In this document: positions 4,912-48,288 of the stretch, one piece after another
Layout of the letters: each line of letters starts with the position of its first letter
Numbering within the stretch: position 1 is the first letter of the stretch
Translations under genes and position numbers: made by a program
Assembly: GCA_020072965.1 (NCBI GenBank)
Contig: JAIQFY010000009.1
Coordinates: 9,649 to 73,648, forward strand
Length of the DNA stretch: 64,000 nucleotides
Direction of reading: 5' to 3'
Source: Terriglobia bacterium
GTDB lineage: Bacteria > Acidobacteriota > Terriglobia > JAIQFV01
The notes under the pieces: model-generated
Seen by the model: only the letters and a program-made list of their open reading frames with translations
What the model was told of the DNA's origin: nothing
Database searches by the model: none

Positions 4912-6708
4912 TCAGGTAGCATTCATTGAATACTGGGTCTCCGCGTTTAAGTCCACCGGGATCAAGGGAAGGGTGATTCGGAAGGTGGCACCGCCTTTCA
5001 AATTATTCTCGGCGGTGATCTTCCCTCCGTAGTGCTGCAGGATGGAATGACTCACACTGAGCGCCATCCCTGTGCCCTTCCCCACTTCCTTCGTGGTGTA
5101 GAAGGGTTCGAAGATACGGTTGGGATCCTTGATTCCGGGTCCATCATCGGAAATGGACACGAACGTGTTGTCGCCATCTATCCCCGTCGTGATGGCGATG
5201 GTCCCGCCGTCTTTCACCTCACGGATGGCGTCCATGGCGTTTTTCAGGATGCTTTGGATCACTTGGACCAGGCGATCCCGATTGACATTGACCCACATGG
5301 GATCGTGTCCGAAGCGCAATTTTGTATTGATATGAAAGGTCTGAAAATCCTTTTCAAATGGACTTAAGGATTCCACGACGAGATCGTTGACCTCGATGGA
5401 TTCCACCGCATGCTCGGGAACCCGGACAAAGCTCTGGAGACTTTCGACAATCTTCTTTGAGCGCGCCGCCGCCTGGAGGATGCGGTCGAATCGCTGACGT
5501 AATTTCGGATCGAGCGCCTTATCCTGCAGCGAGAGTTCAGAAAATCCCATGACGGTTGTCAGCGGGTTGTTCAACTCGTGGGCCGCCCCCGAAATCATCT
5601 GGCCGAGAGCGATGAGTTTCTCAGCATGCTGAAGTTGCCGCTCCATGGTCTTCATTTCGGTCACATCGCGACCCACCGTGAGTACGCCTGAGACCTGGTT
5701 CTCGGCATCGCGTACGGGGGACATGGAGATTTGCATGGAGCAGAGCTTCCCCTGGGGTGCCTCAAGCTGAACTTCCAGAGACTGCGGCTTCCCTTGAAAC
5801 ACCAGGGCCGTCGCCAGTTCCACCAGGCCGCGATCCTTCCCCCGCAGGAACTCGCTATAGTTTTTTCCCTTCAGCTCCTCTGAAGTCAGGCCCAATCCTT
5901 GCTCACACTTCTTGTTGGCCCATTGAAATCGGCCATTCTGGCCGATTACAAAAATGGAATCATTTGCATTGTCTACCAGGCTTTGAATGAATTCATGTTG
6001 CCTCACGGCATCGTCCCGGTGTTGTTGCATTGCAATTTTTTCCCATTCGAAGAGGTGGATGAGCATGCCCACAGCGACCGCCAGTCGCGCAAAGTCAAGG
6101 AACTGGATAGTAAAGGGGAGGATGAAGTTCCACCTCAGTAGAGCGCCAAAAGCCATAAGGCCCAGTCCTATCATTAAGAAACCGCACGCGAGGATTTGAA
6201 TGCCAATGGAATGGGCCTTCCGTCCAGCTCGAAGAAACACTAACGCGGTGAAAAGAACCAGGATACCCAGCAACAGCCCGAACTCCGAGAAGCGGTAAGA
6301 AACCAGCACCATCCGGACGTTAGAAGCGGTATTGGAACCGACGAAATTAGGAGATGGAGCGGTCGCATGATAGATCTGGAAGTAGCTTGTGACGGTAAAA
6401 AGGCATCCGAGCGCTGCGATGAGAATCCGGGAGGTCCGCAGTCCTGCAAAGCTGCGTGCGCTGAGAAAGAACATGATGCCGGCAGATGCGAGCAGGACCC
6501 GGTCGATAAATATGACTGTGTGTGACCTCGCCGGATTGATCAGAACGGCGACTTGTGACAAATACTGAAGCGTCAGGAGAAGCCAACCCAGCGTCCAAAG
6601 CTTAAAGAATGTTTCGTGCAGCTCCCGCCGGGAAAATACAAGAAATACGACGGTAACCAGGACAATGGCCAGAAAAGTAGTCAGTGCGTCAGCGAGATAA
6701 AAGTCCAT
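4912..6708 (-). CDS. membrane-bound sensor histidine kinase (multi-TM N-terminus, PAS, HisKA, HATPase_c)
   Basis: N-terminal hydrophobic segments. PAS-like region (FVIGQNGRFQWANKKCEQGLG). H-box HELNNPLTTVMGFSELS. G-boxes DDGPGI and GTGMALSVSHSILQHYGG. Confidence 0.85.
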   Translation of the reverse strand: MDFYLADALTTFLAIVLVTVVFLVFSRRELHETFFKLWTLGWLLLTLQYLSQVAVLINPARSHTVIFIDRVLLASAGIMFFLSARSFAGLRTSRILIAALGCLFTVTSYFQIYHATAPSPNFVGSNTASNVRMVLVSYRFSEFGLLLGILVLFTALVFLRAGRKAHSIGIQILACGFLMIGLGLMAFGALLRWNFILPFTIQFLDFARLAVAVGMLIHLFEWEKIAMQQHRDDAVRQHEFIQSLVDNANDSIFVIGQNGRFQWANKKCEQGLGLTSEELKGKNYSEFLRGKDRGLVELATALVFQGKPQSLEVQLEAPQGKLCSMQISMSPVRDAENQVSGVLTVGRDVTEMKTMERQLQHAEKLIALGQMISGAAHELNNPLTTVMGFSELSLQDKALDPKLRQRFDRILQAAARSKKIVESLQSFVRVPEHAVESIEVNDLVVESLSPFEKDFQTFHINTKLRFGHDPMWVNVNRDRLVQVIQSILKNAMDAIREVKDGGTIAITTGIDGDNTFVSISDDGPGIKDPNRIFEPFYTTKEVGKGTGMALSVSHSILQHYGGKITAENNLKGGATFRITLPLIPVDLNAETQYSMNAT

Positions 6709-6951
6709 GAGTGCTCCTGGCGGAAGATGGTTCCCCGCCCCTTCTGTCTATTTCTTCGACAAACAGGGGGAAAACTTTAGCAAATAATCATCCACCCGGA
6801 GAAATTGCCTCAAGGCATCATCATTCGTCAGTGTTCCATTGCCCCCCACCCGCAATTTCTTTATTATAAAGACGAATTCGAACTCCCTATCAATTCTCAA
6901 GCGGGCTTTGGCGATCCCCCCGCTCAACGCGAATTACGAAAGGAAAAAGGA

Positions 6952-8247
6952 ATGAAACCGCGATATTGGGTAATCCCAGCGGCCATAATTGCCATCACCG
7001 CCCTGCTGATGAATTTTTCGGCAAAGGCGAGCTATTCGCTGAGAGGAGCAATTCTGGCCTCAGAGCAGGGTGAAAAACCGGTGCCGCTATTCAAGATCCG
7101 CGCCATTACGGCTTTTGTCTCCATCGACCCCGGCCAGGTCGAGGAGGCGGTATCCGGGACGGTCCAGTTCCTGGAGAGAGCCCGGGATCGATTTCAGGCG
7201 GCCGGGTTTGAGGTTCAAACCATTCGACTGGCAACCCAACCTTTTCCGGATTATACGAAAAACATGTCACACCGTGCGGCGCTTGAACTGATCCAAAAAC
7301 TGGATCGATTGGCGGTGCAACACCACCTCGATTTATCCATCGGACCGGGAATTCTGGAAGACCGCGACGATCCGGAAGTGGTGGCCTTGATTACCGATAT
7401 TCTGTCCCATACCAAAACCACCAATGCCAGCGTGACCGTGGCTACCCCGGAGCGCGGGGTCCAACCAAAGGCGGTTCGCGCGGCGGCGCAGATCATGAAA
7501 AGTCTTTCTACTGCCTCCAAGGGTGGAATCGGGAACTTCAGTTTTGCCGCGGCAGCAAACTGTCCCGCCGGGATTCCATTCTTCCCCACCGCTTACCACC
7601 GGGGAACACAGAAGCAATTTGCCCTCGCCATTCAGAGCGCCAGCCTCGTTCAGGAGGCTTTTGCCCATTCCCTCACTCCTGCTGAAGCTCGTGCCAACCT
7701 GAAGAAGATCTATGAAACGCAATTGCATCCGGTTGAAGCCATCGCTCAGGGATTGTCGGAGGAGACCCGTTGGAATTATGAGGGGATGGATGTTTCCACG
7801 GCACCGTTGAAGGATGTCTCGATCGGAGCAGCTATCGAAGCCCTTTCGGGAGTTCCGTTTGGAGACCATGGCACGCTCACCGTTGCCGCCATGATTACAG
7901 ACGTCCTGAAGAGTTTGAACTTAAGACGCACTGGATATTCCGGACTGATGATTCCGGTCATGGAAGACGCCACGATCGCACGACGGGCCGCCGAAGGAAG
8001 GTTGTCCCTTGACAAACTTCTGCTGTTCTCTTCGGTCTGTGCCACCGGCATCGATGTGGCGCCGATTCCGGGCGATACCCCGTCGAATGAAATCGAAAGA
8101 GTCATATTGGACGTGGCCTCCCAGTCCACCAAGTTGAAGAAACCACTTGCCGTCCGGCTCCTTGTGGTTCCAGGAAAACAGCAGGGAGCCATGACCGATT
8201 TTGAAGATCCGTTCCTCGTCAATACGAAAGTCATGTCTGTGAAGTGA
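6952..8247 (+). CDS. DUF711 / UPF0210-family protein
   Basis: AGGAAA ribosome-binding site before the ATG at 6952. The ORF track starts at 6805, but MKPRYW fits better. IRAITAFVSID resembles the conserved N-terminal IRTITMGISL block of UPF0210 proteins; family call is from memory. Confidence 0.55.
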   Translation: MKPRYWVIPAAIIAITALLMNFSAKASYSLRGAILASEQGEKPVPLFKIRAITAFVSIDPGQVEEAVSGTVQFLERARDRFQAAGFEVQTIRLATQPFPDYTKNMSHRAALELIQKLDRLAVQHHLDLSIGPGILEDRDDPEVVALITDILSHTKTTNASVTVATPERGVQPKAVRAAAQIMKSLSTASKGGIGNFSFAAAANCPAGIPFFPTAYHRGTQKQFALAIQSASLVQEAFAHSLTPAEARANLKKIYETQLHPVEAIAQGLSEETRWNYEGMDVSTAPLKDVSIGAAIEALSGVPFGDHGTLTVAAMITDVLKSLNLRRTGYSGLMIPVMEDATIARRAAEGRLSLDKLLLFSSVCATGIDVAPIPGDTPSNEIERVILDVASQSTKLKKPLAVRLLVVPGKQQGAMTDFEDPFLVNTKVMSVK

Positions 8248-8398
8248 GCTTGGTACAATGGAGGACCTGAACAGGTTTAATCGATAGGACACGGAGAAAC
8301 ACGGATCACACGGACCTTTGATTATTAATAGATCACGTCCGTGTCGTCCGTGTGTTCAGCGTCCAAAATTTATCGAAGGACTCTTGAGGTGAGGAAGC

Positions 8399-9397
8399 TC
8401 ATTTTGGATTGCGAAGCTCATTCAGCGCCTGTTCGACATAGGGGCGAACCATTTGCTTGCGCCAGTACATGAGGAAATCGGTGTTGTCGAGGGGCTTGGC
8501 GACAGCATGCGCTGCGGCGGCTGCGGCGCGGATGGCGTTCTCATCCAAGGGGCGACCGATCAGGAGTTTCTGCGCCTCCGTGGCTTCCAACGGATGCGGG
8601 GCGATGGCGCCCAGGATGAGTTTCGCGTCCCGAACAGTCGCGTGATCATCTTCAAACCAAACACAGGCCGCGACACCGAGCACTGGGAAGTCAAACGCGC
8701 CCCGCCGCCTTAGTTTCGCATAGCTGGCGCGCCAACCATTGGCCGGAGGAAGCAGGATTTCGGTCAACAGTTCATCGTGCTGTTTCGTTAAATAATGAAT
8801 CCCATCGAACCGGGAATAGAGTTGGGCGATGGGAATGACTCGTTCTCTCCCGGGGGAGACTAGTTTGACCCGAACGCCCAGAGCGATCAGGACCGGAACC
8901 TCATCAGCCGATTGAACGGCCCAGCAGATTTTGGATCCTGGCGCCACCCAGCAGGTATCGCCGTCTTTCTTCAGGCAGAAATGGACTCCCTTGCGCCATT
9001 CGTAGTTCTGGTCATAGTAATTGCAGCGGGTATCCAGGAGCAAATTGCCCCCGAGCGTGCCCATGTTTTGCAGGATCGGCGTCGAGATGAGTCTCGCCGC
9101 CTGAGCGATAACCGGATAATATTTCTGAATAGTCCGATTCTCAATCAGTTCGGTCAGTGTCACGCCAGCTCCGACGCTCACGCCCGTGGTCGAAGCGGAA
9201 CCTGTGATTTTCTTTAATGCGGCAATCCGGTGTAAACCAATCACGACCTTGGGAGTCTGCTGGCGGCGCTTCATGTTGGGATACAGATCCGTCCCCCCCG
9301 CGACGAACTGTCCCTCGCGACCGGCCTCTGCCATGAGCTTCACGGCATCTGCAATTTTCCGCGGCGCATGATACTCAAATTTTGGAAGTCGCATCAT
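8399..9397 (-). CDS. xanthine-dehydrogenase-family FAD-binding medium subunit with HcrB-type [4Fe-4S] insertion (4-hydroxybenzoyl-CoA reductase beta-like)
   Basis: FAD-binding fold (FVAGGTDLYPNMK). Contains the insertion LLDTRC-NYYDQNYEWRKGVHF-C-LKKDGDT-C-WVAPGSKI-C (Cys125, 141, 149, 158). Its spacing C-x15-C-x7-C-x8-C equals that of the HcrB [4Fe-4S] ligands as I recall them (C122, 138, 146, 155). Confidence 0.8.
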   Translation of the reverse strand: MMRLPKFEYHAPRKIADAVKLMAEAGREGQFVAGGTDLYPNMKRRQQTPKVVIGLHRIAALKKITGSASTTGVSVGAGVTLTELIENRTIQKYYPVIAQAARLISTPILQNMGTLGGNLLLDTRCNYYDQNYEWRKGVHFCLKKDGDTCWVAPGSKICWAVQSADEVPVLIALGVRVKLVSPGRERVIPIAQLYSRFDGIHYLTKQHDELLTEILLPPANGWRASYAKLRRRGAFDFPVLGVAACVWFEDDHATVRDAKLILGAIAPHPLEATEAQKLLIGRPLDENAIRAAAAAAHAVAKPLDNTDFLMYWRKQMVRPYVEQALNELRNPK

Positions 9398-9412
9398 AAG
9401 GCGAGCCGTTCA

Positions 9413-10393
9413 TTATCGCTTAAATGGCAAATGATCCAAATCCACGTTCCCGCCGGACAGAATAATTCCGATCCTCTTGTCCGCAAATCCCGCAGCCTTT
9501 TTGAAGATCGCCGCCGCGACCGCCACGGCGCCGGATGGTTCGACAATGATCTTCATCCGCTCCCAAATGTGACGCATGGCTTCGATGATCTCATCCTCGC
9601 TGACAGTGACGATGTCGTCGACCAGTTTCTGGATAATCGGAAACGTTTTATCTCCGAGGGACGACCGGAGGCCATCCGCAACGGTCTGCGGATGAGCCTG
9701 TAAAATGATTTTTCCGGCTTGCTTCGATTGAAACGCATCGTCAGCGCCCTTGGGTTCGCATCCAATGATCCAGGTTTCCGGAGAAAGACCTTTCATGGCC
9801 AGCGCGGTCCCGCTGATCAATCCCCCACCACCCACGGGGGCCAACAACAGGTCCAACCCTTCTTCAACCTGCTCAATGAACTCCAGGGCGCAGGTTCCCT
9901 GCCCGGCAATAACGCGGTAATTATTGTAAGGATGGATGAGGACGGCGCCGGTTCTGGCCACGAGTTCATCCGTCGTCGACTCCCGCGCCTCCAGGGTGGG
10001 CTTGCAAAAGGTGATCTCACCTCCATAGTTGCGGATCGCTCCCACCTTCGGCGCAGGCGCATTCGAAGGGACCACGATGTACGCTTTAATCCCCCGAATT
10101 CTGGCCGCCATGGAAAGCGCGGCTCCATGATTGCCGGAGGAGTGAGTGACGACTCCTTTCGCCGCGTCCGTTTCATCCAGTGAGAGGACCGCATTGATGG
10201 CCCCGCGCGCCTTGAAGGCGCCCCCCTTCTGCAGGTTTTCGCATTTGAAGAAGACCTGGGCGCCGGCCATCTCGTTCATCGTCCGGCTCGTCATGACGGG
10301 CGTGCGATGGATGTGTGGCCGTATCCTCTCGAGCGCCTCGCGAATCGTCTCCAGGCCAGGTTGGGTTTCAGCGTTTATGGTTGGAGTTGTCAT
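9413..10393 (-). CDS. PLP-dependent threonine/serine dehydratase or serine-racemase-like enzyme (fold type II)
   Basis: FKCENLQKGGAFKARGAINAV lysine motif. Gly-rich loops VGGGGLISG and SGGNV. Sits between the large and medium XDH-family subunits. Confidence 0.8.
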   Translation of the reverse strand: MTTPTINAETQPGLETIREALERIRPHIHRTPVMTSRTMNEMAGAQVFFKCENLQKGGAFKARGAINAVLSLDETDAAKGVVTHSSGNHGAALSMAARIRGIKAYIVVPSNAPAPKVGAIRNYGGEITFCKPTLEARESTTDELVARTGAVLIHPYNNYRVIAGQGTCALEFIEQVEEGLDLLLAPVGGGGLISGTALAMKGLSPETWIIGCEPKGADDAFQSKQAGKIILQAHPQTVADGLRSSLGDKTFPIIQKLVDDIVTVSEDEIIEAMRHIWERMKIIVEPSGAVAVAAAIFKKAAGFADKRIGIILSGGNVDLDHLPFKR

Positions 10394-10654: not shown

Positions 10655-13339
10655 CTACTCCCGCGCGTGGACGGCTTCACGCAGAATTTCCTTTCCCGTC
10701 CCCCCGTCCCAGGGAGGCTTGACACGGACGGGTTCCGGCCAATCCACCTCAGGGACTGACTTTGGCCCGTAACGGTGAGGCTCTTCGACCCCCCGGGTAA
10801 TGCCTGTTCCCCCGCCGTTGGCCGATTCCCCCTCATCTTCTTGTTTTTCGTCCCGCTTCTGAATCGCGGACAGAACTTTGTCGGGCGTGATGGGGACCTC
10901 ATCGATGCGCACTTGGACCGCATCATAAACCGCGTTGGCAATAGCCGGTGGGACCGGCAGCAAGGGTCCCTGTCCGACTTCCTTGGCGCCAAACGGCCCG
11001 TTTGGATCCGGATCTTCAATCAAGAACGTCTTCACGTCGCACATTTCCAGGGTCGTGGGCGATTTGTATTCGAGGAGACTGGGAAATTTGTGCACGACAT
11101 TCCGATTAGTGCGGTAGCTCATTTCTTCCATGAGCGCTTCACCTAATCCCATGTATACCGAGCCCTCCACCTGTCCCAAGGTCAAGGCCGGGTTAATGGC
11201 GCGTCCAATATCGTGCGCAATCCAGATTCGCTCCACCCGCACAATCCCGGTGCGCGGGTCAACCTCAACTTCGGCGACCGCCGCATCGTAACTGTAAGCA
11301 GGAGAGGGACCGACTCCCGCTCCCTTGTATTTTCCTGCGGAGGGAGGCGGCGTATAACTGCCGACGGTCCCAATGGTCCCGAACCTCGCCTCGGCGATTT
11401 GCACCGCCTCGGCGAATGAGATGGACGTCTCGGGATTCTCCACGTCGAATAACCGGCCCCCTGAAAGGGAAAGACGAGTGGCGGGAATGTTCATTTTTTC
11501 CGAAACCGCGCGGATGAGCAGATCCCGGGCGCGCTCGGCTGCCTCCAGCGCCGCATTCCCGGTCATCAGCGTTACCCGGGAGGAATAACTTCCTAAATCC
11601 ACAGGTGTGAGATCGGTATCCGCCGTGAGAACTCGAATGTCGAAGGGATCAATCCCGAGCACCTCGGCAATAATGTAGGCCAAGACCGAATCGGAACCCT
11701 GTCCGATGTCGATCGATCCGCACATCACACACACGCCTCCCTGACGGTCCAGCCGGAGCTGCACCCCGGAATGCGGCATGTGGTTCCAATAAATGGGAAG
11801 CCCGGCGCCGCTCAGGTAGGAGGCACACGCCAGTCCTATGCCTTTTCCATAGGGGAGGTTTCGGAATTTGTTCTTGAAGTCGCTCGCCGTGACCACCTTG
11901 TCGATGCAGGCTGCCAGCCCCATCGAGCCAACCCTCAAGTAGTTTGAGGTGAGCGAATAGGGTTCCACCAGATGGTTCTTGCGTATTGCCACCGGATCGA
12001 GACGTAACTGTTCCGCGATTTTGTCGAGGTGAACCTCAAGGGCATAACGGGGCTGCGGGGTTCCGTGCCCTCGCTTGGGCCCGCAGGGCGGCTTGTTGGT
12101 GAACACACGGACGCCTTCAAACTTGTAATTCGGGATTTTGTAGGTCACCGTCTGCAACGCCCCGGTGTAATAAGTGGAAGCAACGCCATAACTGCCATAT
12201 GCCCCGCCATCGAGGAAGGAGCGGAAGTGCATCGCGGTAATGGCGCCATCTTTCTTCGCCCCCGTCTTCACCCACATGAGCACGGGATGTCGTCCCCGGT
12301 GGCAATAGAATACCTCTTCCCGCGTCAGGGTCACTTTCACGGGACGGCCCGTTAACAGGGCAAGTTTCGAGACAATCATTTCGTGGGGAAAAGGGTCACT
12401 CTTGCCGCCAAACCCGCCGCCATTGGGGGTCGCAATGACCCGGATACGGCTAGCCGGCATTTCCAGTACTTTCGCAAGTGCCCGGTGGACATAGTGCGGG
12501 GTCTGCGTGGAGCTCCATAAGCACAGCTTGCCGTCGCCATCGACCTGGGCCACGGCGGCGTGCTGCTCCATGGGAAGGTGCGTATTGCCTTCGTAAAAAA
12601 ATACATCCTCCCGAATCAGATCGGCCTGTTTGAATCCTTCTTCCACATCGCCAAACTCGAGGGCGACCATCTTGTGAACATTGCCGTGATCCCCATAGCC
12701 GTGAATGCGCCAGGCCTCTTTGTTCTCTCCGGCAAGCTGGGGGCCGCCGGTCCTTGAAGGATTATCGTCCATATGGGCGGAACCCGGACTTCTCAATGCA
12801 TCCTGTATCGAGGAAATGACCGGCAAGGGATCGTACTCCACTTCGATGGCATTCATCGCCTCAAATGCCGCGTCCTCATCGATGGCGGCCACGGCTGCCA
12901 CTGGATCACCGATCATGCGGACCTTGTCGAGGCACAGCGCGTGTTCGTCCTGGCTGACCGGTAAGATGCCATATGGAATCGGAAGAGACTTTCCCGTGAT
13001 CACCGCAACCACGCCGGGCATCGCTACGGCTTTGGACGTGTCAATTTTCCGAATGAGCGCATGGGGAACGTGACTGCGCAGGATCTTGCAGTAGAGCATA
13101 CGCGGCAACACGATGTCGTCGGCAAATTTCGTTTGCCCGGTTACTTTGGCCGAGGCATCCACCTTGCGAAACGGTTTGCCGACCACCTCGAGATGTTTTG
13201 AGCTTCCGTTTTTCATGAGATGAACCGGATAAGGTTTGGTAGCCGTGATCCGCCCGCTTTTTGGCGGATCACGGGTTCTTGTGACCTGCATACAAAAGCC
13301 CGCGATCTCCGCCACGGCGGACGGGATCACGGCTACCAA
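10655..13339 (-). CDS. xanthine-dehydrogenase-family molybdopterin-binding large subunit (HcrA/CoxL-like) with a ~85-aa low-complexity C-terminal tail
   Basis: 894 aa. N-terminal KHLEVVGKPFRKVDASAKVTGQTKFADD block and downstream a/b hammerhead and MoCo-binding blocks typical of CoxL/XdhB. The real start may be the internal MKNGSS. The tail DEKQEDEGESANGGGTG...PPWDGGTGKEILREAVHARE is atypical. Confidence 0.85.
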   Translation of the reverse strand: MVAVIPSAVAEIAGFCMQVTRTRDPPKSGRITATKPYPVHLMKNGSSKHLEVVGKPFRKVDASAKVTGQTKFADDIVLPRMLYCKILRSHVPHALIRKIDTSKAVAMPGVVAVITGKSLPIPYGILPVSQDEHALCLDKVRMIGDPVAAVAAIDEDAAFEAMNAIEVEYDPLPVISSIQDALRSPGSAHMDDNPSRTGGPQLAGENKEAWRIHGYGDHGNVHKMVALEFGDVEEGFKQADLIREDVFFYEGNTHLPMEQHAAVAQVDGDGKLCLWSSTQTPHYVHRALAKVLEMPASRIRVIATPNGGGFGGKSDPFPHEMIVSKLALLTGRPVKVTLTREEVFYCHRGRHPVLMWVKTGAKKDGAITAMHFRSFLDGGAYGSYGVASTYYTGALQTVTYKIPNYKFEGVRVFTNKPPCGPKRGHGTPQPRYALEVHLDKIAEQLRLDPVAIRKNHLVEPYSLTSNYLRVGSMGLAACIDKVVTASDFKNKFRNLPYGKGIGLACASYLSGAGLPIYWNHMPHSGVQLRLDRQGGVCVMCGSIDIGQGSDSVLAYIIAEVLGIDPFDIRVLTADTDLTPVDLGSYSSRVTLMTGNAALEAAERARDLLIRAVSEKMNIPATRLSLSGGRLFDVENPETSISFAEAVQIAEARFGTIGTVGSYTPPPSAGKYKGAGVGPSPAYSYDAAVAEVEVDPRTGIVRVERIWIAHDIGRAINPALTLGQVEGSVYMGLGEALMEEMSYRTNRNVVHKFPSLLEYKSPTTLEMCDVKTFLIEDPDPNGPFGAKEVGQGPLLPVPPAIANAVYDAVQVRIDEVPITPDKVLSAIQKRDEKQEDEGESANGGGTGITRGVEEPHRYGPKSVPEVDWPEPVRVKPPWDGGTGKEILREAVHARE

Positions 13340-13370: not shown

Positions 13371-13916
13371 CTATGATTTCAGCCCGTACACAACTTCCTC
13401 GGCGACCTCTGCCTTTTCCCCGCGCATGTGGGCCGCTGCCAACTCGACCGCTTCGTAAATCTTGATGTAGCCCGTGCAACGGCACAGGTTGCCTGACAGC
13501 GCCTGGGCAATCTCTTCACGGGTCGGTTTTGGATTCTTTGCAAGTAATTCCAAGGCGGTCAGCAAGAATCCGGGGGTGCAGTAGCCGCACTGGGCGGCGC
13601 CGAGATCAGCAAACGTTTCCTGGAGCGGGTGCAAGCGGCCCTCCGGCAATTGCATTCCTTCCACTGTCGTGACCTCGCGGCCCTCGGCATCAAGCCCCAG
13701 GACGAGGCATGAGAGCACCGGCTTGCCGTCCAGGAGCACCGCGCAGGTCCCACATTCGCCCAGTTCACAACCGTGCTTGGTTCCGGTGAGATTCAGATCT
13801 TCGCGCAAAACTTCCAGCAGGGTCTTATGAGGTGCAAACGCAACTTCACACGGCTCCCCGTTCAGGACGAAGGCAATATGCGCTTTTTGTTTCCGAATCT
13901 TCCTTCTCTGTTTCAT
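13371..13916 (-). CDS. (2Fe-2S)-binding small subunit of the xanthine-dehydrogenase-family enzyme (HcrC/CoxS-like)
   Basis: Plant-type cluster motif GTKHGCELGECGTCAV and a second cluster motif CGYCTPG...CRCTGY. Confidence 0.9.
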   Translation of the reverse strand: MKQRRKIRKQKAHIAFVLNGEPCEVAFAPHKTLLEVLREDLNLTGTKHGCELGECGTCAVLLDGKPVLSCLVLGLDAEGREVTTVEGMQLPEGRLHPLQETFADLGAAQCGYCTPGFLLTALELLAKNPKPTREEIAQALSGNLCRCTGYIKIYEAVELAAAHMRGEKAEVAEEVVYGLKS

Positions 13917-13955: not shown

Positions 13956-15371
13956 TCATAACCGAACATACTCGAATTCGAAGGGCTTGCCGCCGACGCC
14001 GCTCTTAGGGGGAGCAATCCAATTGGCAATCTTCCCCGGGTCGGTGACGGGTTTCATCAACTCGCGCACGTAAGCGCGGTCCTCTTGACCGGGCAGCCAG
14101 TGGGGGGCCTTCGCCTCATACTCTTCTTCCGAGATCAAGTTGCCCCCAAGATCGAAGTTATGGTTGGCGAATTCACCCTGATGGCGATGAAAACGGGTGG
14201 AGGGAAGGACCAACCTTGCGGAGATGCCTTCTTCCTCCAGCGCCTTGTTCCATCTTGCCAGACCGCGTTCGCAGTCTTTGACATATTCGCCACGCAGCAC
14301 TTCGTTCAACGCATTCCGGAGCGGAACCTCTTTCGTGGCAAGCTTTCCGTTCTCGATCACGGTCAGCGAATAGGTGGCGTCGCTGATCACGTGGTCCTCA
14401 TATTTCTTCTGTTCGAGATAGCGTCCTTTCAAGCCGGCCGAAAAGAAGTCCGCTGCGTTGGAAGAGATTTCTCCGCCGAAGAGGTCAAGTGAGTAGCTGT
14501 ACCAGAAATTGATGTAGCGCTGGATGATGGAGAGGGGGATGCCGTTGAGCGCCCTCACCTCGTCGTCGCCCTGATTCTTCGTCTGCTTCATCAGCTCCGC
14601 CGTCCGCTTCACAATGCGCTCCAGGCCTGACTCGCCCACAAACATGTGGTGCGCTTCTTCGGTCAGCATGAACTGGCAGGTGCGGGCCAGTGGCTCAAAA
14701 CCCGACTCCGCCAGGGACGCGAGCTGATACTTTCCGTCGCGGTCCGTGAACATGGTAAACGCGTAGAAGTTCAGCCAGTCATCACACGGCTGGTTGAAGG
14801 CGCCCAGGATCCGTGGCTTGTCGGTGTTGCCACTCCGGCGCTGGAGCAATTCTTCCGCTTCTTCACGGCCGTCGCGTCCGAAGTATTTTTGGAGGATGTA
14901 CACCATCGCCCACAAGTGTCGCCCCTCCTCAACATTCACCTGGAACAGGTTCCGCAAATCGTACATTGAAGGGCATGTGACACCCAGACGTCGTTGCTGC
15001 TCGACGGAGGCCGGCTCAGTATCGCCTTGGGTTACGACAATGCGCCGCAGCGCGTTGCGAAACTCCCCGGGGACTTCCTGGTACGCCGGATGGCCGCAAC
15101 CGTCTCCAAACCCGATGGTGGCGTTCGTCTTCGAAGGATTCAGGAAGATCCCCCAGCGATATTCCGGCATCTTGACATAACCGAAATGCGCCCAGCCTTC
15201 GGGTTCCACAGACACAGCGGTTCGAAGATAAACATCGTATCCCTGAAACCCCTCCGGCCCCATCTCGTTCCACCAGGACAGGAAATTCGGAAGCCATTTT
15301 TCCAGCGCGCGCTGAAGCTGGGGATCGTTGCTGAGATCGACATTGTTGGGAATTTTGTCAAATACGCTCAT
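13956..15371 (-). CDS. boxB: benzoyl-CoA 2,3-epoxidase (oxygenase) component B, diiron enzyme
   Basis: 471 aa. N-terminus MSVFDKIPNNVDLSNDPQLQRALEKWLPNFLSWWNEMGPEGFQGYDVYLRTAVSVEPEGWAHFGYVKM closely matches BoxB as I remember it. Two E-x-x-H diiron motifs: VEEGRHLW and TEEAHHMF. Confidence 0.85.
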   Translation of the reverse strand: MSVFDKIPNNVDLSNDPQLQRALEKWLPNFLSWWNEMGPEGFQGYDVYLRTAVSVEPEGWAHFGYVKMPEYRWGIFLNPSKTNATIGFGDGCGHPAYQEVPGEFRNALRRIVVTQGDTEPASVEQQRRLGVTCPSMYDLRNLFQVNVEEGRHLWAMVYILQKYFGRDGREEAEELLQRRSGNTDKPRILGAFNQPCDDWLNFYAFTMFTDRDGKYQLASLAESGFEPLARTCQFMLTEEAHHMFVGESGLERIVKRTAELMKQTKNQGDDEVRALNGIPLSIIQRYINFWYSYSLDLFGGEISSNAADFFSAGLKGRYLEQKKYEDHVISDATYSLTVIENGKLATKEVPLRNALNEVLRGEYVKDCERGLARWNKALEEEGISARLVLPSTRFHRHQGEFANHNFDLGGNLISEEEYEAKAPHWLPGQEDRAYVRELMKPVTDPGKIANWIAPPKSGVGGKPFEFEYVRL

Positions 15372-15561: not shown

Positions 15562-17259
15562 TCATGTTCTTCGAAAATCGAATTTCGCTTTTGTCGGTTT
15601 CCCGTAATTCGTCAGCCCTCCATGTTCGCCAACGGCGTTGGGCCGCTGGAAGATCCAATTCTGCCACGCGGTGAGACGTCCATAGATCTTGGTCTCGGTG
15701 GTTTCCGGGCCGGCAAATCGCAACGAGGCTTCCATGCCGGTCAGGGCGTCGGGCGACAGCGAAGTGCGCTCTTCGATAGCAACGCGAATCTCATCGTCCC
15801 AGTCCAGGCCGTCGGGTGCCAGAGTCACGAGTCCACCTTCGAGCGCGGCGTCGGCAGAGAACCGAGCGGGAGGCTTCAACGCAGCCTCGATCCGGGCGTT
15901 ATCGTTGAGGAAACGGGATTCCAGGCGCGAAAGGCCATTCGACATGGGCAGCGCGCCGGCGTTCATCGAAGTAGTAGCGATTTTAATCGCTTGATCCGGG
16001 TCGTTTCGCATGTAGGTTCGATCCGAAGCGAGGGCAAGTTCCAACAGATTCCCCGCGAAGCAACTCCCCTCTTCAATTAAAGCAAAGAAACTCTTCGCGG
16101 TATGATCCATCCGGCGCAGGACGCGGCCCATGTGGAGAATTATCTCCCGCACCAATCCATGGTCCCGGTGGGATGAGAGCATTTCATCGATCCGATGGAT
16201 GGCGTCAATTTCGCCGTGAGTGCGGACAATCACCAGGCCGATTTCCGGCTCGTTGAAGCGCAAGTGTAGCAGCGCATCATCCAGCTCACGATAAGCCGCC
16301 AGGGCCCAGAACCGGTCTCCCCATTCCTGGATCCGCACGGCGGAATCGGGCTGGGGATCAGCGGGAGCACGCAGCGTCAGATTGGCGATCCGCGCCTTCC
16401 GGTTGAGCTGAAGGGAAACGTATCTGTATTCCCGGCCGCTCTCAGTAATCTGAACCTCAAGGGGATGCAGCTTGATTCCCTTGGGGGGCGTCGATCGAGA
16501 GGGCTCGTCGCTGGGACTGGATTGAATTTCAGCCAGTAGATGATCGATCCGGGAGGTCACCGCTTGGTCAAATTTGCTAGTCGGGAACGTGTCATCTATC
16601 AGGCCCCACTCTTTCGCACGCTTTCCTTTGATCCCTTCCGCGAGGGTGCAGAAAACATCAGCGCGGTCCCGGCGCACCTTGCGCTTATCCACCAGCCGGG
16701 TCAATCCTCCGGTCCCCGGCAGGACCCCCAGCAGAGGCACTTCCGGAAGCGAAACCGCCGAGCTGCCGTCGTCCACCAGGTAAATTGCGTCACACGCCAG
16801 CGCCAGCTCATATCCCCCACCCGCGCACGTCCCGTTGAGCGCGGCGACAAAACGGATGCCCGAAAACCGGGAGGCCTCTTCCATGGCGCAACGGGTCTCG
16901 TTGGTGAACTTGCAGAAATTGACCTTGAAGGGATGGGAAGAACTTCCGAGCATGTAGATATTGGCGCCGGCGCAAAACATGCGCGGCTTCAGGCTCTTCA
17001 CGACCACGACGCGCACCTCGGGGTGTTCGAAGCGGATGCGGTTAAGGGCATCGGCCAGCTCGATGTCGACGCCGAGGTCATAGGAATTCAATTTCAGCTT
17101 GTACCCCTCGCGCAGGGGCGAATCTTCCTGAACATCCAGTCCCAGCGTGGCGACTTCACCTTCCACGACCAAATTCCAGTGCCGGTACTGTCCCGGAGTA
17201 GCTTGAAACTCCACCGGCCGCTCGGCCGTCTGGGGTGGCGGGGTCACTGGAATCGGCAT
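15562..17259 (-). CDS. boxC: 2,3-epoxybenzoyl-CoA dihydrolase (benzoyl-CoA-dihydrodiol lyase), crotonase superfamily
   Basis: 565 aa. YRHWNLVVEGEVATLGLDVQEDSPLREGYKLKLNSYDLGVDIELADALNRIRFEHPEVRVVVV matches the BoxC N-terminal block. Two crotonase-like halves. Confidence 0.85.
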   Translation of the reverse strand: MPIPVTPPPQTAERPVEFQATPGQYRHWNLVVEGEVATLGLDVQEDSPLREGYKLKLNSYDLGVDIELADALNRIRFEHPEVRVVVVKSLKPRMFCAGANIYMLGSSSHPFKVNFCKFTNETRCAMEEASRFSGIRFVAALNGTCAGGGYELALACDAIYLVDDGSSAVSLPEVPLLGVLPGTGGLTRLVDKRKVRRDRADVFCTLAEGIKGKRAKEWGLIDDTFPTSKFDQAVTSRIDHLLAEIQSSPSDEPSRSTPPKGIKLHPLEVQITESGREYRYVSLQLNRKARIANLTLRAPADPQPDSAVRIQEWGDRFWALAAYRELDDALLHLRFNEPEIGLVIVRTHGEIDAIHRIDEMLSSHRDHGLVREIILHMGRVLRRMDHTAKSFFALIEEGSCFAGNLLELALASDRTYMRNDPDQAIKIATTSMNAGALPMSNGLSRLESRFLNDNARIEAALKPPARFSADAALEGGLVTLAPDGLDWDDEIRVAIEERTSLSPDALTGMEASLRFAGPETTETKIYGRLTAWQNWIFQRPNAVGEHGGLTNYGKPTKAKFDFRRT

Positions 17260-17322
17260 CTGGTCATCCTCCGGGATTATAGTGAGATACGCAGTATATT
17301 ACAATTTGACATCGGCAACAAG

Positions 17323-17340
17323 TGCAATATAATGCATGCG
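17323..17340. promoter_or_regulatory. candidate BoxR/BzdR operator: TGCA-N6-TGCA (TGCAATATAATGCATGCG) in the boxC/boxR divergent region
   Basis: TGCA repeats spaced by 6 nt. The embedded ATATAAT is a -10-like hexamer. BzdR-type regulators are reported to bind TGCA-containing repeats; function here is inferred. Confidence 0.35.
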
Positions 17341-17541: not shown

Positions 17542-18342
17542 TTGGTCAACATGTCGAACCAAAGAGACTTCCTGTCAGCCATCGGAGAGCGCGTCCGTAA
17601 ATTGCGTCGCGCGCGCGGGTGGACCCAATCGCAACTGGCGGAGCGAGCCCAGCTTTCTCCCCGTTTTCTGGCCCAACTTGAGGCGGGAGATGGAAACATC
17701 TCCGTACTCCGTTTGGCGCAAGTGGCCGAGGCGTTGCACCAACCCTTGCGCGACCTGATCCCAAGTGTCTCCCTGACCGAAAGAAAGCCGGGCGGTCAAG
17801 TTCGTGGCCGCAAGCAGATCATCGCTTTGATTGGTCTCCGCGGAGCCGGAAAGACCAGTGTGGGCATTCAGTTGGCCGGACGACTCAAGCTGCCCTTCGT
17901 TGAATTGGACTCCCTCATTGAGAAAGCTGCGCTGATGCCACTGGCCCAGATCTTTTCTCTTCATGGAGAAGGCTACTATCGCCGGCTGGAGTATCAAACA
18001 TTGAAAGAGCTATTGCGGAATCCCAAGCCGATCGTACTCGCGACCGGGGGATCGCTCGTGACGGATCCGCGCACGTGGAGCCTCGTCAAGCAATCCTGCA
18101 CCTCGGTCTGGTTGAAGGCCACTCCCGAAGTTTATTGGAACCGCCTTCTCAAGCAAGGTGACACGCGGCCGATGAAGAACAACCCCTCCGCTATGACTGA
18201 GCTTCGTGCTCTGCTGGCGGCCAGGGAACCCCTCTACGGGCAGGCCGATCACATCATCGATACTTCGCGCCTCTCACTTGGTGAGGCTACGGAAGGCGCG
18301 CTTCACGCCCTTGGGATGGATGCGCTCAGTAAGGATGGATAG
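17542..18342 (+). CDS. boxR: BoxR/BzdR-family transcriptional regulator (N-terminal XRE HTH fused to shikimate-kinase-like effector domain)
   Basis: HTH block RKLRRARGWTQSQLAERAQLSPRFLAQLEAG. P-loop GLRGAGKTSVG and a shikimate-kinase fold. Divergent from boxCB. Confidence 0.8.
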   Translation: MVNMSNQRDFLSAIGERVRKLRRARGWTQSQLAERAQLSPRFLAQLEAGDGNISVLRLAQVAEALHQPLRDLIPSVSLTERKPGGQVRGRKQIIALIGLRGAGKTSVGIQLAGRLKLPFVELDSLIEKAALMPLAQIFSLHGEGYYRRLEYQTLKELLRNPKPIVLATGGSLVTDPRTWSLVKQSCTSVWLKATPEVYWNRLLKQGDTRPMKNNPSAMTELRALLAAREPLYGQADHIIDTSRLSLGEATEGALHALGMDALSKDG

Positions 18343-36854: not shown

Positions 36855-38336
36855 TTGAATGGTCAGATGCCCATAACCCTTTCTCCTGCAATAAAAAAGA
36901 AGACCTCGACGCAATCCGCTGGAACAGCGGCCACTCTGCTGCGGAGGATTCCCTCAATCGACCAGTTGCTGCTGACCGCGGAGCTCCAGCGAAGCTTAAG
37001 CAGCTTCCCTCATGAGGCGGTTGTGGACGAGTTGCGTCACGCGGTTCAAACCCTTCGAAACCAGACCCTGACCGGACGTCTGTCAGACCCCGTCTTCACG
37101 CAAGCCCTGGCGGAGATCCCCGACAAGGTCCACACCATTTTGGGACGCCGCTTTGCGCCCTCTCTCGGAAAAGTGATCAATGCGACCGGCGTGGTGTTGC
37201 ACACGAATCTTGGTCGCGCGCCGCTTTCGCGTGCAATCCTGGAGCGCATCCGCGAAGTGGCCGCCGGGTACTCCAACCTGGAATTCGATTTAGCGAAAAA
37301 TACACGGGGAAATCGTGACGTTCACGCGGAGCGCCTGTTAACATCGCTGCTCCGTTGCCAGGCCGCGCTGGTGGTAAACAACTGCGCCGCCGCAGTTCTG
37401 TTGACGCTCAATTCACTGGCGGAGGGTGGCGAGGTCCTTGTCTCCCGGGGAGAGCTTGTGGAAATCGGGGGATCGTTTCGAATCCCTGAAATCATGGCGA
37501 AAAGCGGTGCCGTGTTACGCGAGGTGGGAACCACCAATCGCACCCGGGTCAGCGATTATGCCCGGGCCATCAACGCTCAAACAAGACTCATCCTTAGGGT
37601 CCATCGGAGTAACTTCAAGATGGTCGGCTTTTCGGAACAGCCGTCGCTGGAGGAATTGGTCCGGCTGGCACACCGCAAGCACCTGCCCCTGGTTGAGGAC
37701 CTCGGCTCCGGGTGCGTTGTCGATTTGAGCCCGACCGGAATCACCGGCGAACCTACCGTCGCTGCCAGCCTGAAGGCGGGCGTCGATGTCATCACCTTCA
37801 GCGGCGATAAGCTGCTCGGCGGACCCCAGGCGGGCATCCTGTTGGGCCGCAAGAAAATCCTGGCGCAGCTTCGGACGAATCCCCTTTACCGGGCCTTTCG
37901 CGTCGACAAGCTGACGGTGGCAGCCCTTGAGGCCACAATCCTTTCCTACCTCCGACATGAAGAGCGCACACAAGTCCCGGCACTTAAGATGATCTTCGAA
38001 ACACGCGACCAAATTGAATCTCGGGCAAAGCGGCTGGTTCAGCGCGTGGACGAGGAAACAAAGCCGGGTGGTATGCTCTTGCTCCAGCTTATTCCTGGAA
38101 ATTCCGTGATCGGCGGAGGGTCCACGCCGGGGCAGGAAATCTCCACCATGCTGATATCCATCGGTTCTACCCGAGATTCCGCCCGGGCGATTGAAGCCCG
38201 CCTGAGGGGTTCTCCCATTCCCATTCTGGCAAGGGTGGAAGGGAACCGCGTGCTTGTCGATTTGAGAACCGTGGATGTAAGCGAGGAGGAAGAGATCGTT
38301 CGCGCCCTGGTGAGCCTGGGGAAGCCGGTGGTATAA
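36855..38336 (+). CDS. selA: L-seryl-tRNA(Sec) selenium transferase
   Basis: GKVINATGVVLHTNLGRAPLS block. PLP-lysine context FSGDKLLGGPQAGILLGRK. Confidence 0.85.
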   Translation: MNGQMPITLSPAIKKKTSTQSAGTAATLLRRIPSIDQLLLTAELQRSLSSFPHEAVVDELRHAVQTLRNQTLTGRLSDPVFTQALAEIPDKVHTILGRRFAPSLGKVINATGVVLHTNLGRAPLSRAILERIREVAAGYSNLEFDLAKNTRGNRDVHAERLLTSLLRCQAALVVNNCAAAVLLTLNSLAEGGEVLVSRGELVEIGGSFRIPEIMAKSGAVLREVGTTNRTRVSDYARAINAQTRLILRVHRSNFKMVGFSEQPSLEELVRLAHRKHLPLVEDLGSGCVVDLSPTGITGEPTVAASLKAGVDVITFSGDKLLGGPQAGILLGRKKILAQLRTNPLYRAFRVDKLTVAALEATILSYLRHEERTQVPALKMIFETRDQIESRAKRLVQRVDEETKPGGMLLLQLIPGNSVIGGGSTPGQEISTMLISIGSTRDSARAIEARLRGSPIPILARVEGNRVLVDLRTVDVSEEEEIVRALVSLGKPVV

Positions 38337-46315: not shown

Positions 46316-47260
46316 TCAGGAGTTTTGTCGATTGGTGTGCAGCTTCCGAAACGCAACCGGAGGGAATTGATACTCAGAAGCCAGCTCCGGGTGAATCATC
46401 ACTGCCAGCATCTCGAGGCTGTCGATGATGCGCGGTCCCGGGCGGCTGAAGTACTGGTTTCCGTCGGCGATGAAGACGTGCTGGTTGAGAACGGCCGGTA
46501 GACATTGCCACTCCCTGACACTCTTCAACTGCGCGACTTCGCGGAGAGTCCGGTCGATCGAGAATCCGCAGCAGCTGATGACAACGATTTCTGCGGCAAA
46601 ATCGAGGATCTCCTGGCACTCCACACGCCGCGAGGGTTGACCCGACTTCGCGATTCGATCCACTCCGCCGGCAATCTCAACCAATTCACCATTCCAGTGT
46701 CCACCGGAAAACGGCGGATGGAGCCACTCCATCAGGAAGGTCCGCGGGCGCGTGTCAATCCGCGAAACCAGTGATCTCACCCGTTCGACACGGCGCTGGA
46801 GCAAGCTGATGACCGCTTCGCCTTGTTCAGAGCACCCAGTCATTCGGGCTACGGTCCGGATGTTCTCAAAGATATCCTGCAACCGCATCGGCTCCAGATT
46901 GACCACCCGGGGCGAATGGACCAACCCTTTGACTGCATCTTTCACATAATCGTACGAAACCGCGCACACGCTGCAAAGCTGTTGAGTCAGGATCAGATCC
47001 GGCTGAAGGCGCTTCAGTAATTCAAAATCCAAATCATAGAGCGTTCCCGCCTCGTGCAACTTTTCCCTGACCTCATGGTCGATCGTTTCGCTCGGCTGGT
47101 CCGAATCCACCAGCGCCCGGGTAATCCGGGGCTTGCTTCGAGCCTCAACCGGAAAGTCGCACTCGTGGGACACGGCGACCAGGTCATCGCCTAAACCAAG
47201 GGCGTACACAATTTCAGTGGCACTGGGAAGCAGGGAGACGATTTTCATGGCTTGGGGCAA
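46316..47260 (-). CDS. BtuF/FecB-like (class III periplasmic-binding-fold) cobalamin/iron-complex binding protein, no obvious signal peptide
   Basis: MKIVSLLPSATEIVYALGLGDDLVAVSHECDFP N-terminal block typical of BtuF-type binding proteins. Confidence 0.7.
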   Translation of the reverse strand: MPQAMKIVSLLPSATEIVYALGLGDDLVAVSHECDFPVEARSKPRITRALVDSDQPSETIDHEVREKLHEAGTLYDLDFELLKRLQPDLILTQQLCSVCAVSYDYVKDAVKGLVHSPRVVNLEPMRLQDIFENIRTVARMTGCSEQGEAVISLLQRRVERVRSLVSRIDTRPRTFLMEWLHPPFSGGHWNGELVEIAGGVDRIAKSGQPSRRVECQEILDFAAEIVVISCCGFSIDRTLREVAQLKSVREWQCLPAVLNQHVFIADGNQYFSRPGPRIIDSLEMLAVMIHPELASEYQFPPVAFRKLHTNRQNS

Positions 47261-47454
47261 ATCCCATTCTAATCACGAACCCGGATTCGCGAAATTCTTT
47301 TTTTATATGTTTGGGCTATGGAAGAGCTATTTCAGTCCACAGATTACGCCGATCACACCGAGTAAAATCAAGATTTAAAGCAGTCGTTGTTTTTGATATC
47401 CTCACGATTCATCGAAGACGAGATATTTCAAAGACCGGGGACATCAAGGGCAGA

Positions 47455-48288
47455 ATGGCCATTTCAGTCAGCGGCATTTTTCATCATCCGGTGAAATCTG
47501 CCAAGAGCAAGCCGCTAAACCGTGCAGAGATTGGTGTGCGCGGAATTTTGCACGACCGCGAATGGATGGTGGTCGATGAGCGGGGAATGTTCGTGGCGCA
47601 GCGCCAATCTTCGGAGGCTGGTGTCGAAGTCCGGACCATGTGTTTGGTGGACGCCGCCCTCCAGGACAGGCGCCTGGTCCTCACAGCCCCCGGCCTGAGC
47701 TCAATCTCGGTTCCCCTCAGTGGCCCCGATACCCCGGAAGAAGAGGTGCGGGTCTGGGAGCATCAAGCCCGCGGCATCGATCAAGGCGAAGAGGTCTCCC
47801 GTTGGTTGAGTGAACTGCTCGGAAGGGAGAGACCCGGGAAATATCGCCTCATACGAATGTCAAACCATCACGTTCGCCGCGCCAAACAGGGAGATTCACA
47901 GCTGGCCTTCGCCGATGGCTATCCGTTCCTCATTATCTCTCAGGCTTCGCTGGATGATCTGAACAGCCGCCTTTCAGAAGCCCTTCCTATGAACAGGTTT
48001 CGCCCCAACCTCGTTCTTGACGGGTGCGCGCCGTACCAGGAGGATCAAATGGCCTTGATCCGGATCGGCCGAGTCCTTCTCGAGGGCCAGGGGCTATGCG
48101 CACGCTGTCCAACCACGGCCACCAATCAGGAAACCGCCGAGCGCGGCAAGGAGCCGCTCCGCACCCTGGCGACCTACCGCCGGCACCCCAGCGGCGAAGA
48201 CGGTGTCGTGTTCGGGCGTAATTTCAATCATTTGAATCTCGGGACGATCGCGATGGGGGATACCGTTGAAATTCTAGCTGCTGACTGA
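47455..48288 (+). CDS. MOSC-domain protein (YcbX-like: MOSC_N beta-barrel plus MOSC)
   Basis: Start chosen at MAISVSGIFHHPVKS; the ORF track starts at 47311. MOSC block with conserved Cys: LEGQGLCARCPTTATNQETAERGKEPLRTL. Confidence 0.7.
   Translation: MAISVSGIFHHPVKSAKSKPLNRAEIGVRGILHDREWMVVDERGMFVAQRQSSEAGVEVRTMCLVDAALQDRRLVLTAPGLSSISVPLSGPDTPEEEVRVWEHQARGIDQGEEVSRWLSELLGRERPGKYRLIRMSNHHVRRAKQGDSQLAFADGYPFLIISQASLDDLNSRLSEALPMNRFRPNLVLDGCAPYQEDQMALIRIGRVLLEGQGLCARCPTTATNQETAERGKEPLRTLATYRRHPSGEDGVVFGRNFNHLNLGTIAMGDTVEILAAD

Follow-up and report, generated by a model that had tools for sequence, protein, structure and literature searches.

4-Hydroxybenzoyl-coenzyme A (CoA) reductase (HCR; HcrCAB/HbaBCD, EC 1.1.7.1) provides the textbook example of a xanthine oxidase (XO)-family enzyme that is run backwards, and its presence is used as a metagenome marker for anaerobic degradation of aromatic compounds. 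In the structurally characterized enzyme of Thauera aromatica (PDB 1RM6/1SB3; Unciuleac et al. 2004), the flavin adenine dinucleotide (FAD)-binding subunit HcrB carries an inserted cysteine-rich loop. Benzoyl-CoA, the product of HCR, is also the substrate of the O2-dependent Box pathway, whose genes in Mycetohabitans show the canonical order of a regulator followed by boxC-boxB-boxA. Here, we describe a 64,000-nucleotide stretch of DNA from a Terriglobia bacterium of the phylum Acidobacteriota (GenBank assembly GCA_020072965.1, contig JAIQFY010000009.1, positions 9,649 to 73,648; referred to below, at its full 64-kb length, as the window), in which genes for an HCR-like molybdenum (Mo) enzyme share an operon with boxC and boxB. 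The analysis focused on the medium (beta, FAD) subunit of this enzyme, on the four-cysteine loop that it shares with HcrB and on what this loop, the active site of the large subunit and the genomic context indicate about function.

A four-cysteine loop of the HcrB type in the medium subunit

The medium subunit contains five cysteine residues, at positions 125, 141, 149, 158, and 245. The first four lie within the motif LLLDTRC-x15-C-x7-C-x8-C and are encoded by codons 9023-9025 (Cys125), 8975-8977 (Cys141), 8951-8953 (Cys149), and 8924-8926 (Cys158) of the window. Pfam assigned the domains FAD_binding_5 and CO_deh_flav_C to the protein. When all PDB chains were searched with phmmer, T. aromatica HcrB (1rm6_B) was the top match (2.7e-51). 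The alignment to HcrB was free of gaps over residues 107-209 and superimposed Cys125/141/149/158 on HcrB Cys122/138/146/155. An 89-residue query that covered the loop region alone still matched HcrB at 1.2e-19. The shared cysteine pattern therefore reflects homology, and a chance arrangement of cysteines was ruled out.

Medium subunits of the carbon monoxide dehydrogenase type showed a different picture. CutM and CoxM aligned to the window protein as two blocks (residues 4-120 and 169-326), with approximately 10 residues between the blocks, and the FAD_binding_5 match consumed 213 residues of the medium subunit for 168 profile positions. These results indicated that the loop is a true insertion of ca. 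38-48 residues. The initial annotation, which was made from the DNA sequence only, had reported four cysteines with this spacing, judged their spacing identical and their position nearly identical to those in HcrB, and stated that CoxM-type medium subunits lack the insertion. The translated open reading frame (ORF), the gap-free alignment to 1RM6_B and the split of the CutM and CoxM alignments around residues 121-168 bear out these statements, and the four cysteines fall inside the HcrB insertion.

The C-x15-C-x7-C-x8-C spacing was exactly conserved in 120 of the 120 nearest database homologues (64-100% identical), in all 80 medium subunits from related genome loci and in three remoter relatives (L084, L086, and L087). 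The loop ranked among the best-conserved segments of the medium subunit; Cys245 is not conserved. HcrB contains a fifth loop cysteine, Cys117, at a position that is occupied by Leu in the window protein and its clade. This replacement is consistent with Cys122/138/146/155 being the cluster ligands of HcrB, the set reported with the HCR structure of 2004. Ligand assignment in the window protein is based on this set, on the conservation pattern and on a secondary statement in the literature (PMC11760930). Binding of a [4Fe-4S] cluster by the loop is predicted and very probable. An AlphaFold2 model of the medium subunit, based on a 38-sequence alignment, had a confident core and a predicted local distance difference test score (pLDDT) of approximately 30 for loop residues 122-163; Foldseek again ranked 1rm6_B first. 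An identical protein is on record from an Acidobacteriia metagenome-assembled genome (MAG). In every locus examined, HcrB-type loops were found solely alongside HcrA-like large subunits.

A sister clade of HCR with a glutamine in the active site

The large and medium subunits had HCR models as their best NCBIfam matches and HCR as the best solved structure, while an HCR model was not the best NCBIfam match of the small subunit. None of the three HCR equivalog cut-offs was reached: the beta model TIGR03195 scored 252 bits (cut-off 405), the alpha model TIGR03194 808 bits (cut-off 995) and the gamma model TIGR03193 168 bits (cut-off 258). Global identity was 41% to HcrA and 40% to HcrB. As judged by these curated sequence criteria, the enzyme is not an HCR orthologue.

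Among PDB entries, HcrA was the first-ranked match of the large subunit (1rm6_A, 9e-173); the runner-up, CoxL, scored 264 bits, less than half the HcrA score. Gln749 (codon 10970-10972, minus strand), located in the sequence GAKEVGQGPL, occupies the position of HcrA Glu726 and bovine XO Glu1261. All solved relatives that were aligned have Glu at this position, including HcrA, nicotinate dehydrogenase, quinoline oxidoreductase, CO dehydrogenase, and 6-hydroxypseudooxynicotine dehydrogenase. The equivalent of Glu1261 has been termed essential in mammalian and bacterial XO-family members, and the reductive urolithin dehydroxylase UcdO retains it as E741 (PMC11760930). Gln was fixed in 63 of 63 near-full-length large subunits from related genome loci. 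Across the wider family, sampled as 150 representatives of clusters at 50% identity, Glu occurred in 122 representatives, including that of the HcrA cluster, and Gln in eight.

A rough distance-based, midpoint-rooted neighbor-joining tree of large subunits, which is to be read as indicative, grouped the window protein with L004, L029, L062, L066, L075, P0121, and P0125 in a single Gln clade, apart from HcrA and P0140. Large subunits of this clade also share a C-terminal extension that has no equivalent in HcrA. In the window protein this tail comprises approximately 64 residues (10658-10849, minus strand). In the 63 near-full-length subunits it spans ca. 45-65 residues and is conserved clade-wide, with the motif R-[YF]-G-P...P..[WF]-P.P.R-V..P..G-G.G. 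On the evidence of the alignments and the tree, the enzyme is a member of a sister clade to HCR that has Gln in place of the catalytic Glu; the initial annotation had missed this distinct, uncharacterized clade. Absence of the catalytic base argues against ordinary hydroxylase chemistry.

The loop itself appears to be older than the clade. Remote relatives of both the Glu type and the Gln type (P0122 and P0125, see below) have medium subunits with the exact HcrB motif, which indicates that the HcrB-type loop is, as inferred from these sequences, ancestral to a broad HCR-like branch.

Organization of the operon and other genes in the window

On the minus strand, the operon has the order boxC-boxB-small-large-PLP-medium, in which PLP denotes a gene for a pyridoxal phosphate (PLP)-dependent enzyme; a BoxR-like regulator gene is divergently oriented (Table 1). 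The small subunit contains both canonical [2Fe-2S] motifs (Cys50/55/58/70 and Cys110/113/145/147), and no twin-arginine translocation (Tat) signal was evident in its sequence. The PLP gene lies between the large- and medium-subunit genes, 15 nucleotides upstream of the latter, a slot in which it was found only in the window and in a syntenic Terriglobia locus (L002/L004). Within the gap between boxC and the regulator gene, the plus strand carries a sequence facing the regulator that matches the sigma-70 consensus at 12 of 12 positions (TTGACA-16-TATAAT), and a promoter-like site facing boxC on the minus strand scored 10 of 12.

Table 1. Features of the HCR-like Mo enzyme operon and adjacent elements, with positions in the window.
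Feature	Position	Strand	Basis or remarks
Medium (beta, FAD) subunit gene of HCR-like Mo enzyme	8399..9397	-	332 amino acids, start MMRLPKF
Inserted loop of medium subunit, residues 121-168, C125-x15-C141-x7-C149-x8-C158	8894..9037	-	Predicted [4Fe-4S] site; alignment to HcrB 118-165
PLP-dependent dehydratase/ammonia-lyase, BhcB / threo-3-hydroxyaspartate ammonia-lyase-like	9413..10393	-	NF045641 458 bits (cut-off 550); Pfam PALP
Large (alpha, molybdopterin) subunit gene	10655..13216	-	853 amino acids from ATG at 13216; ORF open to TTG at 13339
Small (gamma) subunit gene	13371..13916	-	Pfam Fer2 + Fer2_2
boxB, benzoyl-CoA 2,3-epoxidase oxygenase component	13956..15371	-	TIGR03225 749 bits (cut-off 499, passed)
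boxC, 2,3-epoxybenzoyl-CoA dihydrolase	15562..17259	-	TIGR03222 788 bits (cut-off 712, passed)
Divergent promoter-like sites, boxC/regulator gap	17276..17333	both	Consensus matches only
BoxR/BzdR-type regulator	17542..18342	+	NF006015 290 bits (cut-off 204, passed); Pfam HTH_3 + SKI (shikimate-kinase-like)

Among ORFs of at least 150 amino acids, the 64-kb window contained no boxA, boxD, aryl-CoA ligase, ferredoxin or ferredoxin-reducing enzyme; absence of BoxA was also found by tblastn. Two further groups of genes in the window are seemingly unrelated to the Mo enzyme: selA, encoding selenocysteine synthase (36855-38336, plus strand), and genes for a TonB-dependent B12-type receptor and a BtuCDF-like ABC transporter (46316-53996).

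Distribution and gene neighborhoods of relatives

A scan of one genome per species yielded at least 589 matching stretches, of which the best 80 (56-75% identical) were examined. These derived from Acidobacteriota (Pyrinomonadaceae, Blastocatellia, Terriglobia, Bryobacterales, and Thermoanaerobaculia) and from Gemmatimonadota, among them Gemmatimonas aurantiaca; a few bins carried other labels. With hundreds of matches in genomes of Acidobacteriota and Gemmatimonadota, the Gln clade appears to be widespread. The gene order small-large-medium was conserved among the best 80 loci, in which a MocA-like cytidylyltransferase gene was a common neighbor (29 loci), as was a redoxin gene (31 loci). A Terriglobia MAG (L002/L004), whose medium subunit is 75% identical to that of the window, matched the window in gene order, with the PLP gene also in place. 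Box genes occurred near the Mo enzyme in four loci, namely L004 and L075 plus L142 and L156 from metagenomes, and their arrangement differed each time. In L001 (5471-9919) and other Pyrinomonadaceae loci, the subunit genes were often split by small unrelated ORFs, encoding an Mrr-type restriction protein, DUF6883/DUF4926 proteins or toxin-antitoxin-like proteins.

In three Blastocatellia loci (L016, L023, and L029; approximately 3.3-19 kb), a BoxR-like regulator gene was divergently oriented from an operon encoding a PaaK-like CoA ligase followed by the small, large, and medium subunits, and this operon was followed by a quinohemoprotein amine dehydrogenase cluster (qhpA/D/B/E). This layout suggests a link to the catabolism of aromatic amines or arylacetates. 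Genes for enoyl-CoA hydratase, acyl-CoA dehydrogenase, a salicylyl-CoA-hydroxylase-like monooxygenase, kynureninase, and tryptophan 2,3-dioxygenase were found near the Mo enzyme in 7-11 loci. PaaK-like ligases near relatives have a further match, to the DVU_1553 family, and this family co-occurs with accessory genes of Mo enzymes.

Two remoter representatives had more explicit surroundings. P0122, the nearest Glu-type representative (57% identical), has fused small and large subunits and is surrounded by BcrAD/BadFG-type genes and genes for acyl-CoA dehydrogenase and an IorAB/POR-type 2-oxoacid:ferredoxin oxidoreductase. P0125, the deepest Gln-type representative, adjoins one gene for a PaaK-like CoA ligase and another for a ferredoxin-reducing POR; such neighbors offer a CoA-ester context as well as a source of reduced ferredoxin.

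Absence of boxA and electron supply to BoxB

Searches by tblastn with Mycetohabitans BoxA detected a homologue neither in the window nor in the 80 Mo-enzyme loci. Likewise, no boxA was found by tblastn beside boxB in the 31 nearest metagenomic BoxB loci with enough downstream sequence; in remoter metagenomic BoxB loci, boxA was directly downstream of boxB in 8 of 28. Because boxA is absent from the window and from those 31 nearest loci, BoxA-less clusters are typical of this BoxB lineage. Their frequency prompts one to ask what serves as the reductant of BoxB.

In the window and in L002/L004, genes of the Mo enzyme take the slot of boxA. A Mo enzyme was near boxB in only 2 of 80 BoxB loci. An obligate partnership of the Mo enzyme with the Box proteins was rejected as unlikely, since 78 of the 80 Mo-enzyme loci had no box genes and 78 of the 80 BoxB loci had no Mo enzyme. 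In metagenome locus L142, a region between boxB and the Mo-enzyme genes (6674-10127) encodes a ferredoxin-NAD+ reductase of the AndAa/HcaD-like type, located directly after boxB, and a PaaK-like ligase. Either BoxB or the Mo enzyme could receive electrons from this reductase, which makes its gene a candidate for electron supply.

Proposed function and alternatives

We propose that the enzyme is a ferredoxin-fed reductive aryl-CoA dehydroxylase that acts in an HCR-like mode and makes benzoyl-CoA for BoxB and BoxC, a function that is on balance probable, if only just. By analogy with HCR, reduced ferredoxin would donate low-potential electrons to the surface [4Fe-4S] cluster of the FAD subunit, from which they would pass via FAD and the two [2Fe-2S] clusters to Mo, in an 'inverted' flow. 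The Mo site would reductively dehydroxylate a phenolic aroyl-CoA to benzoyl-CoA, with 4-hydroxybenzoyl-CoA as the most likely substrate. BoxB and BoxC, encoded upstream in the same operon, would then epoxidize benzoyl-CoA and open its ring, while the BoxR-type regulator would sense benzoyl-CoA and control the operon. The sequence data show the homology of the loop and its conservation, the composition of subunits, the structure of the operon and membership in the clade; occupancy of the cluster, the electron donor, the direction of catalysis and the substrate are inferred. Location of the genes in an operon with boxC and boxB, synteny in the Terriglobia MAG with a 75%-identical medium subunit, recurring linkage to box genes and BoxR-type regulators, and the position of the relatives P0122 and P0125 beside CoA-ester and ferredoxin-generating genes all support this proposal, as do the homology and strict conservation of the loop, the HCR matches of the large and medium subunits and the presence of both [2Fe-2S] motifs in the small subunit. 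Loss of Glu fits an enzyme that no longer hydroxylates. Genomic context and the missing catalytic base are stronger clues to a reductive role than the loop.

Several observations weigh against this proposal. All three HCR equivalog cut-offs were missed, and identity to HcrA (41%) and HcrB (40%) is low. The characterized reductive members HcrA and UcdO have retained Glu at the position of Gln749, so that the chemistry or substrate of the Gln enzyme may differ. In 78 of 80 related genome loci, no box genes occurred within 10 kb, and in Pyrinomonadaceae the operon lies amid housekeeping genes (panB, panC, maf, dciA, gatC, and gatA). A CoA ligase, a ferredoxin and a ferredoxin-reducing enzyme are missing from the ORFs of at least 150 amino acids in the window. 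The hosts are mostly from taxa regarded as aerobes; characterized HCR is oxygen-sensitive. Finally, an analogous cluster occurs in oxidative PaoABC.

In a first alternative, the enzyme would apply the same HCR-like reductive chemistry to a different aryl-CoA, such as another hydroxy- or amino-benzoyl-CoA or a compound derived from an arylacetyl-CoA, of which it would remove or transform a substituent, and would still yield benzoyl-CoA for BoxB and BoxC. Sub-equivalog scores, the separation of the clade from HcrA and the altered active site, with Gln for Glu, favor such a substrate. So does the company of relatives, which are paired with PaaK-like (arylacetate-type) rather than benzoate-type CoA ligases, in some cases adjoin a quinohemoprotein amine dehydrogenase operon, and in others lie near salicylyl-CoA-hydroxylase-like, kynureninase, and tryptophan 2,3-dioxygenase genes. 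However, since the PaaK-like ligases match the DVU_1553 family too, they may not mark the substrate, and 4-hydroxybenzoyl-CoA is the sole substrate so far proven for this family branch; we consider a different substrate rather unlikely. An oxidative Mo enzyme, either a hydroxylase or an aldehyde oxidoreductase, in which the [4Fe-4S] cluster serves as electron exit as proposed for PaoABC, would fit the mostly aerobic hosts and the presence of a four-cysteine cluster at the same site in oxidative enzymes of the PaoB type. Its reaction could be aryl- or arylacetyl-CoA hydroxylation, or oxidation of 3,4-didehydroadipyl-CoA semialdehyde, the BoxD reaction, for which no boxD gene (aldehyde dehydrogenase) was found in the window. 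We regard it as distinctly unlikely, as the loop is of the HcrB type (73 bits, versus 17.6 bits for PaoB, with different spacing), the PaoC and PaoA models score far under their cut-offs, the base Glu that is required by all characterized hydroxylases is Gln in every clade member, and box genes are absent from the vicinity of most clade loci.

The position of the Mo-enzyme genes downstream of boxB, in the slot of boxA in canonical operons, invites the alternative that the enzyme replaces BoxA, its FAD/[4Fe-4S] subunit feeding electrons to di-iron BoxB with or without turnover at the Mo site. BoxA is an FAD and [4Fe-4S] protein, and neither the window nor the 80 Mo-enzyme loci nor the surroundings of the 31 nearest boxB genes with enough downstream sequence yielded a homologue of it. 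Yet clusters without BoxA are usual in this BoxB clade, where a Mo enzyme is near in only 2 of 80 loci, and the 78 of 80 Mo-enzyme loci without box genes show that coupling is not obligate. Moreover, a reductase would not need an 850-residue Mo subunit, a separate gene for a ferredoxin-NAD+ reductase directly follows boxB in L142, and BoxA may be encoded elsewhere in the genome; replacement of BoxA is thus highly improbable. A more far-reaching idea is that the Gln-type, tailed HCR-like enzymes represent an unrecognized functional class of the XO family that keeps the [4Fe-4S] cluster as a port for entry or exit of electrons and that, in a BoxA-less Box operon, couples its own redox reaction with an aryl-CoA (or the Box aldehyde) directly to the electron supply of BoxB. 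Although very unlikely in our estimation, such a class would, in a Box operon, join 'anaerobic-type' Mo chemistry with 'aerobic' ring epoxidation in one self-contained hybrid.

Implications

The Joint Genome Institute annotation of these acidobacterial proteins reads '4-hydroxybenzoyl-CoA reductase subunit beta'. Since public annotation already points to HcrB, the loop itself is not new. The missing catalytic Glu, the conserved tail and the placement in an O2-dependent, BoxA-less Box operon appear to be undescribed in the literature that was searched. A search for literature on co-occurrence of hcr and box genes or on the Gln variant found nothing specific; a paper on SAR324 bins describes a ligase-BoxB-BoxC cluster and, separately, an HCR.

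The HcrB-type loop is common to a much larger, uncharacterized sister clade in mostly aerobic soil phyla that lacks the catalytic Glu, and in the window an enzyme of this clade would feed the oxygen-dependent Box pathway or be coupled to it. Should the enzyme be a true aryl-CoA dehydroxylase, phenolic acids could be converted in soil Acidobacteria by a hybrid route, via benzoyl-CoA to the epoxide. Matches to 'hcr' would then no longer be evidence of anaerobic metabolism, and the Glu-to-Gln replacement would represent a natural experiment on the role of this residue in the reductive direction.

Comparison with characterized enzymes

Medium subunits of the CoxM/CutM and XdhB types share the FAD_binding_5 plus CO_deh_flav_C fold with the window protein. 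Unlike the latter, which has a segment of 48 residues at the site of the insertion, CutM has approximately 10 residues there, and medium subunits of these types lack the insertion. Urolithin C 9-dehydroxylase of Enterocloster (UcdCFO) resembles the proposed activity in being an XO-family enzyme that catalyzes a reductive dehydroxylation, with the phenol group para to a carbonyl that withdraws electrons (PMC11760930). It differs in having no [4Fe-4S] loop, in using NADH-derived electrons and in retaining the catalytic Glu, E741, and the XO-family proteins of E. bolteae are reported to have low identity (23-34%) to HCR (PMC11760930).

PaoB of Escherichia coli PaoABC (5G5G) and the corresponding subunit of Methylobacillus aldehyde oxidase (5Y6Q) have a four-cysteine insertion at the same site as the window protein, with the shared sequence GGNL..(D/R)TRC, and the extra [4Fe-4S] motif has been described as characteristic of PaoABC (bioRxiv 10.64898/2026.07.15.738685). 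However, the PaoB-type loops have a different cysteine spacing and aligned with gaps, at 17.6-18.9 bits as compared with 73 bits for HcrB. Enzymes of the PaoABC type act oxidatively and have retained the catalytic Glu, and PaoA is exported, whereas no Tat signal was evident in the small subunit from the window. The window subunits scored 258 against the PaoC model (cut-off 1180) and 135 against the PaoA model (cut-off 322). Based on the difference in spacing and on these scores far under the cut-offs, assignment to the PaoB type was ruled out.

These two systems define what the loop can indicate. Oxidative PaoB-type enzymes have such a loop and reductive UcdCFO has none; its presence is therefore no proof of membership in a reductive class, and reductive catalysis neither requires the extra cluster nor follows from it. 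The initial annotation had called the loop the strongest clue that the enzyme belongs to the low-potential, reductive HCR class. Of that statement, homology to HcrB stands and the functional reading is plausible, but the diagnostic value of the loop was overstated. Class membership is supported in part: HCR is the best match for the large and medium subunits, but scores stay under the equivalog cut-offs, identity to HcrA is 41%, and the enzyme falls in a separate clade with Gln for Glu.

Thauera HCR remains the closest comparison. In both systems, three subunits are encoded together, a gamma subunit with two [2Fe-2S] clusters, a Mo-pterin alpha subunit and an FAD-binding beta subunit; the beta subunits share the same inserted loop, with identical cysteine spacing and a gap-free alignment, and both large subunits contain a 'GAKE' motif. 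The window enzyme differs from its Thauera counterpart in having Gln for Glu726, an internal insertion of approximately 24 residues and a conserved C-terminal extension of approximately 64 residues in the large subunit, and Leu for Cys117 in the medium subunit. Its operon, from a host in the phylum Acidobacteriota, includes a gene for a PLP enzyme. Both enzymes are associated with benzoyl-CoA metabolism, in the window through boxB, boxC, and a BoxR-type regulator; the window genes are thereby tied to the O2-dependent Box pathway rather than to benzoyl-CoA reductase.

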